Positions 37,320 through 42,713 of a stretch of DNA of 64,000 nt are shown here, piece after piece; positions within the stretch are counted from its first letter, which is position 1; each line of letters opens with the position of its first letter. Where the stretch lies: assembly GCA_000004695.1 (NCBI GenBank), contig CM000155.2, positions 2,464,001 through 2,528,000 on the forward strand, written 5' to 3'. The notes beneath the pieces were generated by a model that had not been told where the DNA came from, did no database searches, and was given only the letters and a program-made list of their open reading frames with translations. This DNA comes from Dictyostelium discoideum (taxonomy: Eukaryota). A program made the position numbers and the translations under genes.

Positions 37320-40300
37320 ATGAATAAAAAATTATTTATTTTTGGATTATCATTATTTTTATTTTTATTTATATTTAATTTATCATTAAGTTTAAAATTA
37401 TCATCTAAAAATAACTTTTATAATCATAATCATATAAATAATCAAATTCATAGAAATAATGAAGGTAATAATAAATTATCAAAATTAATTCATTTACATA
37501 ATGATGTAATTGATACAACCATTTCAAATAGAGATAATATTTTATTTAATAAGAAATCTTTAAATCAAAAATCAAAGGGAAGTTTATTTTTAGTCCATTT
37601 AAATGGACCAATTGAAAAACAAGTACATAATGAATTAATAAAACAATTGGATCAATTATTTAATGGTGGTGAAATTATTCATTATATTCCTGATAATACT
37701 TATTTAATATCAATGATTGGTAGTGACAACAATGATAATAATAATAATAACAAAATTGAATTAATTAATAGATTAAAAGAATTAATACCATCAATTCAAT
37801 GGTTAAAACCATTAGAACCAAGATTAAAAATTTCACCATTATTTAAACAAAATCAATTCCAAGGTGATAATCAAAATGAAATTGATCAACTTAGAATTTA
37901 TTATCATGAAAATAGTAATCAACAATCAAATGATATTGATAATATTATTTCAGAATCATCATTAACTTTGGTTGAAAAAGAATTAATTTCAAATAATAAT
38001 AATAATAATAATAATGTTTTAATTACAGTTAATTTAAAAAATAGTAAATTATCATTAGAATCAATAATTTATAAAATTTCAACAAGGTCATTAGTTTATT
38101 GGATTGAACCAAGTTCAAGTAAATTAATTAAACATACACCAAGTAATAAATTTGCTCACTATTCAATTCAAAGTGGTAGTGCATCTACAACTTCAACCCC
38201 AATTTGGGATGTTATTGGAATTAAAGGTGATGGTGAAATTGTTGGTTGTGCAGATACTGGTATTGATATTAATCATTGTTTCTTTTATGATACAAATCCA
38301 ATTGGTTCGACTCATAGAAAAATCATTTCTTATTCAAGTGGAAATGGTGATCAAATCGATGAAATTGATGGTCATGGTACTCATATTGTTGGTACTATTA
38401 TAGGCTCAACTACTGTGGATCCAAGTGTTTCAGAATTTAGTGGTGGCGCTCCAAATTCAAAGGTTGCATTCGTTGATTTACAAGTTGGTAGTGGTAATGG
38501 ATTATCAATTCAATCAAATTTAACAGCAATCTATCAATCAACCTATGATCAAAATGCAAAAGTACATTGTGATGCATGGAATTCAAATATTGGTCCATTC
38601 TATACTGGTGTCACTGAAATGATAGATAGATTCCAATGGGACCACCCAGATTTCCTTGTAGTTAGATCAGCAGGAAATAATGTAAACTTTGGTTTCAATT
38701 CAATCTATACCTTATCACAAGAATCAACTAGTAAAAATTCATTGGTAGTTGGTAGTTCAAATCAACCATCAAGTACCTATTTATCATCAATTGATTATTG
38801 GGACTGGGATTTCATTTATAATTCAATTAGAACTTCAGTTTGTACTCAAGGTCAATCTATTTATGGTATAACTTGTTCAGATGTACCAACTCAAACAACC
38901 TCTGTCGATATTCAAACTCAATGTTGTTCAAATCCAATTTTGGCTAAAATTTGTTGTTCAACTGAAATTCAACAACAATATCAAACCAATTCAACAGTTT
39001 ATAGTGAATTCATTCCAAGTTTATTTAGTGGTGTTGGTCCAACATCTGATGGTCGTTTGAAACCAGATTTATTAGCACCAGGTTCACCAATTATTTCATC
39101 ACGTTCTTTGGGTCCATCATCAACCATTAATCATTGTTCACCAATTACATCAGGTATTGCAACATCGGCTTTAATCGCTATGGAAGGTTCAAGTCAAGCA
39201 GCTGCTGTCGCTACAAGTGCCGCAGTTTTAGTTCGTCAATACTATAGAGATGGTTATTTTATTAATGGTAAAGTTAATTCATCTGTGGGATTCCAACCAT
39301 CAGCATCATTGGTTAAAGCAACCTTAATCAATACTGCAAGTATTAATGTTGATTCAACATTAGAATATTCACAAGGATTTGGTAATATTCAACTTTCAAA
39401 GTTAATCACAACTACAAATGCCCAAACCACATCTTTAGACATTCCATCATCAATTGAAAAAGCTGATCCAATAATTAATACTGGTGAAACCAATTCATAT
39501 TGTTTCTCACTCGATAGTAAAGCAGATATTGATATAACATTGGTTTGGACAGATCCTGCCGGTTCACCATTATCAACATTTACTTTGGTAAATAATTTGG
39601 ATTTAGCTTTACTTGCATTTGTTGATGGTGAACTTTCAATATATTCAGGAAATAGTGAAACCATTTTCAAAAATACAAGCCAAGTAATTTTCGATCAATT
39701 AAATAATGTTGAAGTCATTAGAATTAAGGATGCACCAATTGGTAGTTATGATGTTAAAATATTTGGTACAAATATTGTAATTCCAAATCAATCCTATTCA
39801 GTTGTAATTAGAACTTCCGGTGGTACAACTTTAATGAAGGAATCAGAATGTGCTCAATGTTTCTATGATCCAAATGATGATCAATCTCAAATGTGTGAAT
39901 TTGATAATGGTATTGGTACACAATATTGTAAAGATGATAATAGATTTTCAAAATGTGTCGTCTATGAATGTAATACAGGTTATGTCTTTGATAATGGTAT
40001 CACAAAGTCTTGTGTAACCACCTTGGCATTAACACTCTATGATATTGTATTATTGGGTATTTTTGGTATAATTATTGTTGGTGCTGTAATATTTGTTTTG
40101 GTTTGTTATAAATCTAAATCATTGGATCAAAATAAATATTTTTCATTATCAAAAGATAAAGGAGGTGATGGAAATTCAATAAGATCAAATAGTGTTGCTG
40201 GAAATAATAATAATAATAATAATAATAATAATAATAATAATAATAATAATAATAATAATAATAATAATAATAATAATAATAATAATAATAATAATAATAA

Positions 40301-42713
40301 TAGTAATGGAAAACAATCAAATATTGAATTAAATTCAGTTGGTGGTGGTGATGATGGTACTCCAAATGGTGATGATCAACAACAACAAAATAACTCACCA
40401 CAATATGATGAAGATGGAAGATTAATTTCAGGTCAAGAAGTTGAAATTTCAATATTTGAAGTAATTTCATTAGGTAAACCAGAAAGTAAAATCTTGGGTT
40501 TAGCATTATTTTTATCATTCATTGATGTTGCATTAGGTTTAGCAGTACCATTAGTAGCAGCCAATATTTTCGATTATTTATATGCAGGTGAAACGGGTAA
40601 AATCTCAACAACTATTTTAACATTTGCCTTAATTATCATTGGTATGATTATTGTTCAATTCTTGTCTGGTATTTTATTAGCTTTGGCAGGTCACAGAATT
40701 ATTGCAAGACTACGTCGTGAAATGTTTGCATCCCTTTTGAAACAAGATATGGCATTCTTTAATGAAAGAAAAACTGGTGAACTAATGAGTCGTTTAGCAA
40801 GTGATGTATCATCAGTACGTTCAATTATCTCTGATAGTATTCCACATATGATCATTCAAATTGCTACCATTGGTGGTACATTAATTATGTTATTTATTAT
40901 CTCTTGGAAGTTATCATTGGTTGTACTTTGTCCATTACCAATTCTATTGGTTTTCTCAAAATTCTATGGTGGTTATATTGAAGTTATCTCTGTTAAAGTT
41001 CAAGATGCTTTGGCCGATGCTGCAACTCATGCAGCTGAAACTTTATTCAATATGAAAACCGTTCGTTGGTTCTCTGCTGAAGAAAGAGAAGTTGCAAAAT
41101 TCTCAAAACTTATTAGTGTATCTTATAAAATTGCTTTAAAAATGACAATTTGGAATGGTATTTATTCTTCAACTTCTGGTATTTTTGAACAATTATCAGT
41201 ATTTGTAATGTATTAAATTTTATTTTTTAAAAATAACAAAAAAAAAAAAAAAAAAAAAAAAAAAAAAAACAAACAAAAATATATATGTATTATTTTATTA
41301 ACTTTATTTTTTTTTTTTTAAAATATTATTTTTATATAGATTTTATTATGGTATGGTTCATCATTAGTTAGTAATGGTGATTTAACACCATCAATGCTAA
41401 TTGCTTTTAATTTATTTTTACCATTTATTACTGGAGCAGTTACACAAGTTGCATCATTGTATACAACCTATAAATCCTATAAAGGATCTAGTTATAGATT
41501 CTTTGAAATTATGCAACGTGTACCGGATATCCAAGGAGAAGGTGGTATAACTCGTACTAAAGTTCGTGGTGATATTCAATTTAATAAGGTTAGTTTCGCA
41601 TATTCATCAAATCCTGATCAACTAGTTTTGGAAAAGATTGATATCAAATTTGAACCAGGTACAATTACAGCATTAATTGGTCCATCAGGTGGTGGTAAAT
41701 CAACTATGCTTTCATTGATTGGTAGATTATATAATATCGATGGTGGTTCAATTACATTGGATGGCACAAACATTAAAGATTTCAATGTACCAAATCTTCA
41801 TGAACATATCTCAATTGTAAATCAAGAACCATCATTATTTAGTGGCTCAATTGCAGAGAATATTATGTTTGGTAAACCAACTGCAACCCGTTCAGAGATT
41901 ATTGAAGCATGTAAACAAGCAAATGCCCATGATTTCATCACTGCAATGCCAGAAGGTTACGATACATTAATTGGTGAACGTGGTACAGCTTTATCAGGTG
42001 GTCAAAAGCAACGTATCGCAATTGCACGTACTATCATCAAAAATCCAACCGTTCTCTTATTGGATGAAACCACTAGTGAGTTGGATGTAGAAAGTGAGAA
42101 ATTAGTTCAAGATTCCATTGATAAATTAGTAGTAGGCCGTACAGTTATCATTGTAGCTCATCGTCTTACAACAATTCTAACCGCTGATATCATTGCCGTA
42201 GTAAGTGATTCAACCATCTCTGAAATGGGTACACCAGAGGAATTGTTGGCAAAGAAGGGTATGTTTTATGATTTCGTTCAAATTCAATATGGTAAACAAG
42301 GTGAAGAACTTGATATTCAATTACCAAGTAATAGTAGAAATACTAGAAATGCTGATAAATTACGTAATCGTTCTGAAACTATCAAACAAATTGCTAAAAT
42401 TAATAATATCATACCAATTCATCGTCCACAACGTGGCGACGACGACAACGAAGATGACGAAAATAATAGTGGCCAAGGTTCATCACGTTCACCACCACCA
42501 ATGTGGAGACAAGCCAAGAAGAATGCAAATGTTAATAAATCAATGTTATTAACTCGTCGTAATACTCATGTACAACATCAATCATCATCGGGTGGTTGGC
42601 AAAAAGGTAATGTTGATGATAAACTTCAAAGAGTTTTACAAAAATCAAGAAAGAAAGGTTTCATGAATAATCAAGACCATAAAGACATTAAAGCAACACT
42701 TGTATTATATTAA
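37320..42713 (+). CDS. Tag-family protein: N-terminal subtilisin-like serine protease fused to an ABCB half-transporter (transmembrane domain plus nucleotide-binding domain), 1752 aa. Model: join(37320..41204, 41340..42713).
   Basis: Signal peptide MNKKLFIFGLSLFLFLFIFNLSLS. S8 peptidase motifs are present: GCADTGIDINHCFF (Asp), GHGTHIVGTIIG (His), VVRSAGNN (oxyanion Asn) and MEGSSQAAAVATSAAVL (Ser). A poly-N linker from (AAT)n lies at 40200-40310. A type-I ABC exporter TMD follows (...MSRLASDVSSVRSIISDSIPHMI...). A 135-nt intron (GTAATG...TATATAG) separates it from the NBD, which has Walker A GPSGGGKST, signature LSGGQKQRIAIARTII and Walker B LLLDETTSELD. This architecture is specific to the Dictyostelium TagA/B/C/D proteins. 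I cannot tell which paralog this is. Confidence 0.8.

Follow-up and report, generated by a model that had tools for sequence, protein, structure and literature searches.

A solitary protease–ABC transporter fusion gene of Dictyostelium discoideum, very probably tagA, and its divergent active-site motif

The locus and the encoded protein

The 64,000-nucleotide stretch of Dictyostelium discoideum DNA analysed here (the window; positions 2,464,001 to 2,528,000 of the forward strand of contig CM000155.2 in assembly GCA_000004695.1) is AT-rich, with 13–36% GC, and contains poly-asparagine (poly-Asn) coding tracts, as in Dictyostelium. From 37320 to 42713, its forward strand holds a two-exon gene for a protein of 1752 residues, in which a subtilisin-like serine protease of the S8 family is joined to an ATP-binding cassette (ABC) half-transporter. 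The locus is very probably tagA (DDB_G0293002). Of the four genes that make up the Tag subfamily of ABCB transporters, tagA is the solitary and divergent one. Descriptions of the Tag architecture go back to 1995, and tagA was reportedly cloned and knocked out in 2003. The gene is already known, and it is intact and ordinary; its analysis has little discovery value, and what is gained is the assignment among the paralogs, the position of the intron, and a fusion that holds whichever way the splicing is modelled. The primary studies on TagA, Good et al. 2003 and Cabral et al. 2006, are taken here as cited in PMC3743828 and PMC4334915, and the gene identifier is that given in PMC4334915.

From the N- to the C-terminus, the protein holds a predicted signal peptide, two ferredoxin-like domains, the S8 catalytic domain, a β-domain, a cysteine-rich stalk, an additional transmembrane (TM) helix here called TM0, a poly-Asn tract, a six-TM membrane domain, and a nucleotide-binding domain (NBD). 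Three Pfam matches, all of them far beyond chance, fall along this layout: Peptidase_S8 (PF00082) at residues 303–688 (E = 1.8e-46), ABC_membrane (PF00664) at residues 1060–1329 (E = 5.9e-61), and ABC_tran (PF00005) at residues 1392–1541 (E = 9.7e-31). A first-pass annotation, made from the letters of the sequence alone, had proposed a Tag-family fusion of a protease and an ABCB half-transporter in one polypeptide, and this is borne out by the open reading frame (ORF) of the first exon, by the Pfam matches, and by the splice junctions of the orthologs.

The motifs of the NBD are canonical in all five cases (Walker A, Walker B, Q-loop, LSGGQ signature, and H-loop), among them the three that the first-pass annotation had already named, i.e., Walker A (GPSGGGKS, residue 1409), Walker B (VLLLDE, residue 1533), and the signature (LSGGQ, residue 1513). 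Among solved structures, the nearest relatives of the ABC half are ABCB1, ABCB4, ABCB11, and ABCB19, with ~660 bits summed over their two halves, and the best half-transporter is the peptide transporter ABCB9/TAPL, with 383 bits, followed by ABCB10, ABCB8, and TAP1. Judged by these sequence relationships, the ABC half is an ABCB (type IV exporter) half-transporter. The poly-Asn tract that precedes it varies in length among strains, and differs by 27 residues from that of a wild-strain protein (P0001).

The protease ectodomain and its active site

The ectodomain is a KP-43-type two-domain subtilase with a Tag-specific cysteine-rich insertion. Its structural model, with a predicted local distance difference test score (pLDDT) of 78.5, has KP-43 (1wmd) as the top fold match, with a TM-score of 0.83 and E = 8.5e-31. 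The second of the two domains, at residues 712–830, matches residues 320–431 of SubHal (5fax; phmmer E = 6.8e-9). The insertion within the S8 domain falls in the gap between the two stretches that align with KP-43 and SubHal, and forms helices in the model; it is kept in both Tag clades, where its cysteine columns are near-invariant, but not in KP-43 or SubHal; likewise, the membrane-proximal cysteine-rich module at residues 844–898 is kept in both Tag clades but not in KP-43. An epidermal growth factor (EGF)-like nature of this module is not claimed, the match to the light chain of factor X being non-significant (E = 0.94).

Upstream of the protease, the AlphaFold models exhibit two β-α-β-β-α-β units at residues ~89–164 and ~190–265, with pLDDT values of 78.5 and 80.2, respectively. 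These units share their topology with the propeptides of subtilases, and the models would allow a possible propeptide role. A Foldseek search with the N-terminal domains returned only generic ferredoxin-like, ACT, and RRM folds at TM-scores of ~0.3, and a sequence search of the PDB with residues 85–265 gave no match, so that the propeptide reading stays tentative.

Alignment to KP-43 and SubHal places the Asp/His/Ser triad and the oxyanion Asn, which the first-pass annotation had recognized as retained, at D312, H352, S625, and N453, respectively, all four of them invariant in an alignment of 40 sequences comprising the Tag proteins and related S8 enzymes. It is from these residues, together with the ATPase motifs, that this copy had been described as probably enzymatically active, and the description holds as a prediction of that kind.

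The catalytic serine S625 lies in the motif GSSQAAA (residues 623–629, window 39186–39206). The pattern G-[ST]-S-Q-[AS]-A-A is present in 8/8 sequences of the TagA clade, whereas G-T-S-M-x-x-P is found in all the sequences of the TagB/C/D clade and in nearly all the other aligned S8 relatives. The positions changed in the TagA clade correspond to M222 and P225 of subtilisin BPN'. Both residues influence the catalytic efficiency of subtilisin; M222 is its oxidation-sensitive residue, and subtiligase, a peptide ligase, was obtained from subtilisin by two changes, P225A being one of them.

Because the substituted positions affect catalytic efficiency in subtilisin, the TagA protease might be weak or inactive, acting as a binding or presentation module next to a functional ABC half. 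Two observations weigh against an ordinary, active enzyme and thus in this direction: the canonical GTSMxxP motif, which is typical of S8 peptidases but does not strictly define them, is absent from the window protein, and PMC3743828, PMC3188802, PMC2829058, and PMC4334915 contain no biochemical assay of TagA, which is called "putative" in a published title. In the same direction, partial knockouts of tagA, affecting the transporter domain, and complete knockouts differ in their phenotypes (PMC4334915), and this difference suggests that the protease and the transporter have separable roles in TagA. A loss of activity nevertheless appears unlikely. The tetrad D312/H352/N453/S625 is invariant through the TagA clade down to an overall identity of 53–55%, as well as across the 40 S8 sequences, as would be expected if catalysis were under selection. 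The Gln and Ala substitutions are themselves conserved, pointing to a tuned rather than a decayed site, and substitutions of M222 leave subtilisin active. An active TagA protease therefore remains the preferred reading.

A bolder proposal, to which only a small chance is given, is that catalysis by TagA is unlike that of TagB/C/D. Judging from the motif, the substitutions could, for example, confer resistance to oxidants, or shift the enzyme to transpeptidation or to a very narrow processing activity. If true, a catalytic behavior different from that of TagB/C/D might explain why TagA acts at another developmental step. The KP-43-type core, the Tag-specific cysteine-rich insertion, and the Ser-Gln-Ala-Ala-Ala motif could guide biochemistry on the "putative" TagA protease.

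Assignment of the locus to tagA

The first-pass annotation had asked for a phylogeny against the Tag genes, and the resulting neighbor-joining tree (1258 columns, Kimura distances, 200 bootstraps) places the window protein in the TagA clade, and not with TagB, TagC, or TagD. This clade has a bootstrap value of 100% and stands apart from the TagB/C/D clade (96–100%). The orthologs of the window protein show a graded identity, from 98% in the D. discoideum wild strain through 90.5% in D. citrinum, 87% in D. firmibasis, and 64.5% in D. purpureum to 55% in Tieghemostelium lacteum; the wild-strain ortholog differs by 32 substitutions and by the length of its poly-Asn tract. Synteny agrees in D. purpureum, where a DUF4504 gene (−), a gene with CSN6-like JAB and MitMem_reg domains (+), and the tag gene (+) follow one another in the same order. 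In a further assembly, GCA_054883475.1, a 312-aa JAB+MitMem_reg gene lies at the corresponding place upstream of tagA.

The TagB/C/D paralogs were recovered with a paralog-level match (P0008) as the query, the full-length query having missed them, probably on account of its poly-Asn words. A word-index search with the protease region only returned generic S8 peptidases of 548–1191 aa, and missed even an ortholog of 96% identity. Among the paralogs, P0147 is tagD of strain AX4, according to its UniRef name "Serine protease/ABC transporter B family protein tagD" (Q8T9W1). Three Tag genes stand in tandem at a single locus of the D. discoideum wild strain, and it was this cluster that was examined, standing in for the AX4 TagD contig. 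Its first gene is 98% identical to AX4 TagD. The third holds both published primers for the quantitative reverse transcription PCR of tagB (sequences from PMC2829058), with one mismatch each and 276 bp apart, and elimination leaves tagC for the middle one, which encodes 1735 aa. Identity among the three is ~70%, compared to 29–35% to the window protein. In the window, the tagB primers have no match with up to three mismatches, and its large ORFs include no further Tag or ABC gene. Since exactly four Tag genes are known, A–D (PMC3188802), and tagB, tagC, and tagD are accounted for in the cluster, the window gene would be tagA.

It is very improbable that the window gene is instead one of the clustered paralogs (tagB, tagC, or tagD) or some fifth Tag gene not yet described. 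Such a reading can draw on the single domain order shared by all the Tag genes (PMC3188802), and on the fact that the first-pass annotation had left the paralogs undiscriminated. The assignment is also weakened by the kind of evidence behind it: the name tagA rests on elimination and orthology, i.e., on sequence relationships, rather than on a direct match to AX4 TagA, and an exact look-up of the 1752-aa product in the protein collection gave no match. The length of TagA in UniProt, 1752 aa, agrees with the product but is no test of the assignment. However, the distance from AX4 TagD and the cluster genes (29–35% identity), the tagB primers that fit the cluster and not the window, the separation of the clades at 100% bootstrap, and the count of four Tag genes in the literature (PMC3188802) all argue against another paralog. 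Moreover, an exhaustive HMMER search over 1.84 billion representatives yielded only three of the fusion type, P0005 (TagA clade), P0148 (TagB/C/D clade), and P0162, with D. discoideum sequences in two of the three lineages. With tagA as the preferred identity, the processing of spore differentiation factor (SDF) and the prestalk biology that the first-pass annotation had attached to TagB and TagC keep their place with those paralogs, but they do not apply to the window gene, because the tree puts it in the TagA clade.

Gene model and intron

An ORF of 1298 codons opens with the ATG at 37320, and a second one closes at 42713; listed singly, they extend over 37320–41216 and 41394–42713. Splicing from a GTAATG donor at 41205 to a TATAG acceptor whose last base is 41339 keeps the frame and yields the 1752-aa product. 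The same junction, QLSVF/ILLWYG, is present in seven independently annotated orthologs. The assembly GCA_054883475.1 matches the window at 99.4% DNA identity along 21 kb (23818–44940); there, the same splice model gives an identical 1752-aa protein around an intron of 131 nt, and the own annotation of that assembly has a product of 1752 residues at the tagA locus. The intron of D. purpureum tagA is 72 nt long and occupies the same phase-0 site (L001 15481–15552). The ortholog of T. lacteum holds no intron at this site (L005 9840/9841), where its two halves run on without a break, and the tagC-type paralog is intronless as well, with one uninterrupted ORF of 1735 codons bearing all three domains.

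The single intron of 135 nt in the first-pass annotation is thereby upheld, but not its location exactly between the TM domain and the NBD. The splice position follows residue 1295, inside the ABC_membrane match, at the end of TM5 and ahead of TM6 (about residues 1310–1333), and the NBD match begins only 97 residues later. The fusion is independent of the intron model, because exon 1 alone spans the signal peptide and the protease and extends into TM5. That the protease and the transporter are two genes misjoined by the intron model, as the two ORFs listed apart might suggest, can practically be discarded, given that the first ORF already holds the protease, TM0, and TM1–TM5, that the ABC_membrane match crosses the junction, that the spliced junction is identical in the seven orthologs, and that the halves are uninterrupted both in Tieghemostelium and in the tagC-type paralog. 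Nor is the best match a non-Tag protein with the protease encoded separately, as the first-pass annotation had allowed for; the nearest relatives are all protease–ABC fusions.

Some public models of tagA orthologs are fused to upstream genes, probably through errors of annotation. That of D. purpureum (P0004, 1935 aa; L001 10001–16932) takes in the CSN6-like JAB/MitMem_reg gene, and that of T. lacteum (2591 aa; L005 3001–11250) a gene for an M16 peptidase.

Table 1. Features of the tagA locus, in window coordinates (residue numbers refer to the 1752-aa product).
Feature	Position	Strand	Basis or remark
Upstream CSN6-like JAB/MitMem_reg gene, multi-exon	35532..36883	+	Synteny marker; MitMem_reg 7.7e-26, exon ORFs
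tagA exon 1 (codons 1–1295): signal peptide, N-terminal domains, S8 protease, β-domain, Cys-rich module, TM0, poly-Asn linker, TM1–TM5	37320..41204	+	Continuous ORF, spliced translation, same junction in orthologs
Predicted signal peptide (residues 1–25, MNKKLFIFGLSLFLFLFIFNLSLSL)	37320..37394	+	Hydropathy scan only
Two tandem ferredoxin-like domains, 5' of the protease region	37572..38105	+	AlphaFold models, pLDDT 78–80
Peptidase_S8 catalytic domain (residues 303–688)	38226..39383	+	Pfam 1.8e-46, fold, alignment to 1wmd/5fax
Catalytic D312	38253–38255	+	Under DTG motif of KP-43/SubHal
Catalytic H352	38373–38375	+	Under HGTH motif of KP-43/SubHal
Oxyanion N453	38676–38678	+	Invariant alignment column
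Cys-rich, mostly helical S8 insertion (residues 483–568, ~85 residues, CC...CC motifs)	38766..39023	+	
Catalytic S625	39192–39194	+	Under GTS motif of KP-43/SubHal
C-terminal β-sandwich domain (residues 712–830)	39453..39809	+	phmmer to 5fax, all-β in model
Membrane-proximal Cys-rich module (residues 844–898)	39849..40013	+	Conserved Cys columns
TM0, extra TM helix joining ectodomain to cytosolic linker (residues 903–931)	40026..40112	+	Hydropathy maximum 3.23
Poly-Asn tract, 33 N (residues 962–994), cytosolic linker	40203..40301	+	Spliced translation, hydropathy
ABC_membrane domain (residues 1060–1329), split by the intron after 1295	40497..41441	+	Pfam, hydropathy
Sole intron, 135 nt, phase 0, 6% GC, GTAATG...TATAG	41205..41339	+	Between TM5 and TM6
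tagA exon 2 (codons 1296–1752 and stop): TM6, NBD, C-terminal low-complexity tail	41340..42713	+	
ABC_tran NBD (residues 1392–1541)	41628..42077	+	Pfam, motifs
Walker A GPSGGGKS (residue 1409)	41679–41702	+	
Q-loop VNQE (residue 1455)	41817–41828	+	
LSGGQ signature (residue 1513)	41991–42005	+	
Walker B VLLLDE with catalytic Glu (residue 1533)	42051–42068	+	
H-loop AHR (residue 1568)	42156–42164	+	3' of the ABC_tran match

Distribution of the protease–ABC fusion

The first-pass annotation had regarded the architecture as specific to Dictyostelium. The Tag fusion itself stands, but not its restriction to the genus, since the fusion is also found in Tieghemostelium and in one GC-rich environmental contig; it is typical of the dictyostelids as a group, and not of Dictyostelium alone. 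Acytostelium is likewise a dictyostelid with one Tag gene (PMC4334915). The environmental sequence, P0162, is a deeply divergent fusion of S8, ABC_membrane, and ABC_tran domains, which the tree places in neither of the two dictyostelid Tag clades. It is encoded by a single uninterrupted ORF of 5 kb (L004 5001–10037) in contig Ga0606450_0373 of the JGI metagenome 3300062492, whose GC content is 56–64%. As a further possibility, of the same low standing as an altered catalysis of TagA, the architecture may reach slightly beyond the dictyostelids.

A non-dictyostelid origin of P0162 was considered and rejected as unproven, given that the genome of Acytostelium already has 45% GC overall.

Neighborhood of the locus

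Downstream of tagA, a convergent gene on the reverse strand (42785–43399) lies 72 nt past the tagA stop codon; it encodes 204 aa with a CCHC zinc-knuckle-like motif and long Ser/Asp- and Arg/Ser-rich tracts. It is followed, also on the reverse strand, by an ORF of 419 aa (44062–45321) with a helix-turn-helix (HTH) DNA-binding domain of the Tc5-transposase type (E = 3.3e-14) and an internal (ATT)51 repeat at 44674–44826, and this 419-aa Tc5-type gene is annotated likewise in GCA_054883475.1. The region from 45000 to 52000 is gene-poor over ~7 kb, with 13–19% GC, a GC skew of up to +0.56, and an (AAAT)40 array at 47863–48027; no ORF of at least 150 aa was found in it.

Farther upstream, a tandem duplication occupies 15797–20317. 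Its two ORFs of 444 aa (15985–17319 and 18983–20317) are 99% identical and have no Pfam match. Each of them is preceded by a 300-nt repeat, 100% identical between the copies, and they are separated by ~4 repeats of a 199-bp unit (17999–18895). Partial copies of the 300-nt repeat, 66–78% identical, are located at 15056, 17511, and 20537. Just ahead of the duplicated ORFs are two tRNA genes on the reverse strand, tRNA-Glu(CTC) at 14516–14588 and tRNA-Ala(AGC) at 15676–15748.

The remaining genes of the window include a very long ORF at 118–5724 (+) that carries a Ribosomal_S5 N-terminal domain close to the C-terminal end, an ORF of 1673 aa at 22187–27208 (+) with a THH1/TOM1/TOM3 domain, a 610-aa RasGEF at 29284–31116 (−), and a PsbP-like protein at 56283–57716 (−).

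Function and proposed mechanism

The best understood members of the family are those of the cluster. TagC cleaves AcbA into SDF-2 at the surface of prestalk cells, for which the transporter activity of TagC is needed to present the protease, and TagB has been linked to SDF-1 (PMC3743828). TagA has a role in cell fate, with AcbA as a suspected substrate and a genetically implicated partner (PMC4334915). The expression of tagA reaches its maximum at ~2 h of development, whereas tagB expression sets in at 8 h and is highest at 20 h (PMC2829058). Early expression of TagA correlates with prespore fate (PMC11832675).

The predicted topology, with a signal peptide followed by 1+6 TM helices, would leave the protease facing the cell exterior or the lumen of an organelle, and the NBD in the cytosol. 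As is the case for other ABCB half-transporters, TagA would have to dimerize for ATP hydrolysis. From what has been published on the Tag proteins, it is expected that the ectodomain would cleave the precursor of a secreted signal, and that the ABC half would either export a peptide or control the exposure of the protease. According to the literature, TagA acts at the onset of development in the determination of cell fate, and AcbA is its genetically implicated partner.

Comparison with known systems

The closest known system is TagA (DDB_G0293002) itself, with which the window gene shares its species-level sequence, its domain order, and its solitary locus; no difference was detected, the identity being assigned by elimination. 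In D. discoideum, tagA is the only Tag gene located outside the tagB/C/D cluster.

TagB, TagC, and TagD share with TagA the signal peptide, the S8 domain with its cysteine-rich insertion, the β-domain, the cysteine-rich stalk, TM0, the six-TM ABCB domain, and the NBD. Despite these similarities, both groups exhibit clear differences. At 29–35% identity, TagB/C/D form a separate clade and are encoded in a tandem cluster instead of at a solitary locus. They keep GTSMATP around the catalytic serine, where TagA has GSSQAAA, and their expression is late and in prestalk cells, compared to the peak of tagA at ~2 h (PMC2829058). Moreover, the tagC-type gene is intronless, unlike tagA with its one intron.

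Outside the family, the ectodomain finds its best match in sequence and fold in KP-43 (1wmd) and SubHal (5fax), with the Asp/His/Asn/Ser residues aligned and a homologous C-terminal β-domain. However, these Bacillus subtilases are soluble secreted enzymes with ~23% identity to TagA, and they hold neither the cysteine-rich insertion nor a membrane anchor or an ABC transporter. On the other hand, ABCB9/TAPL, TAP1, ABCB10, ABCB8, and ABCB1 have the membrane domain of type IV exporters and a canonical NBD, as in TagA, but lack the extracytoplasmic protease and the TM0 helix that connects it to the transporter.

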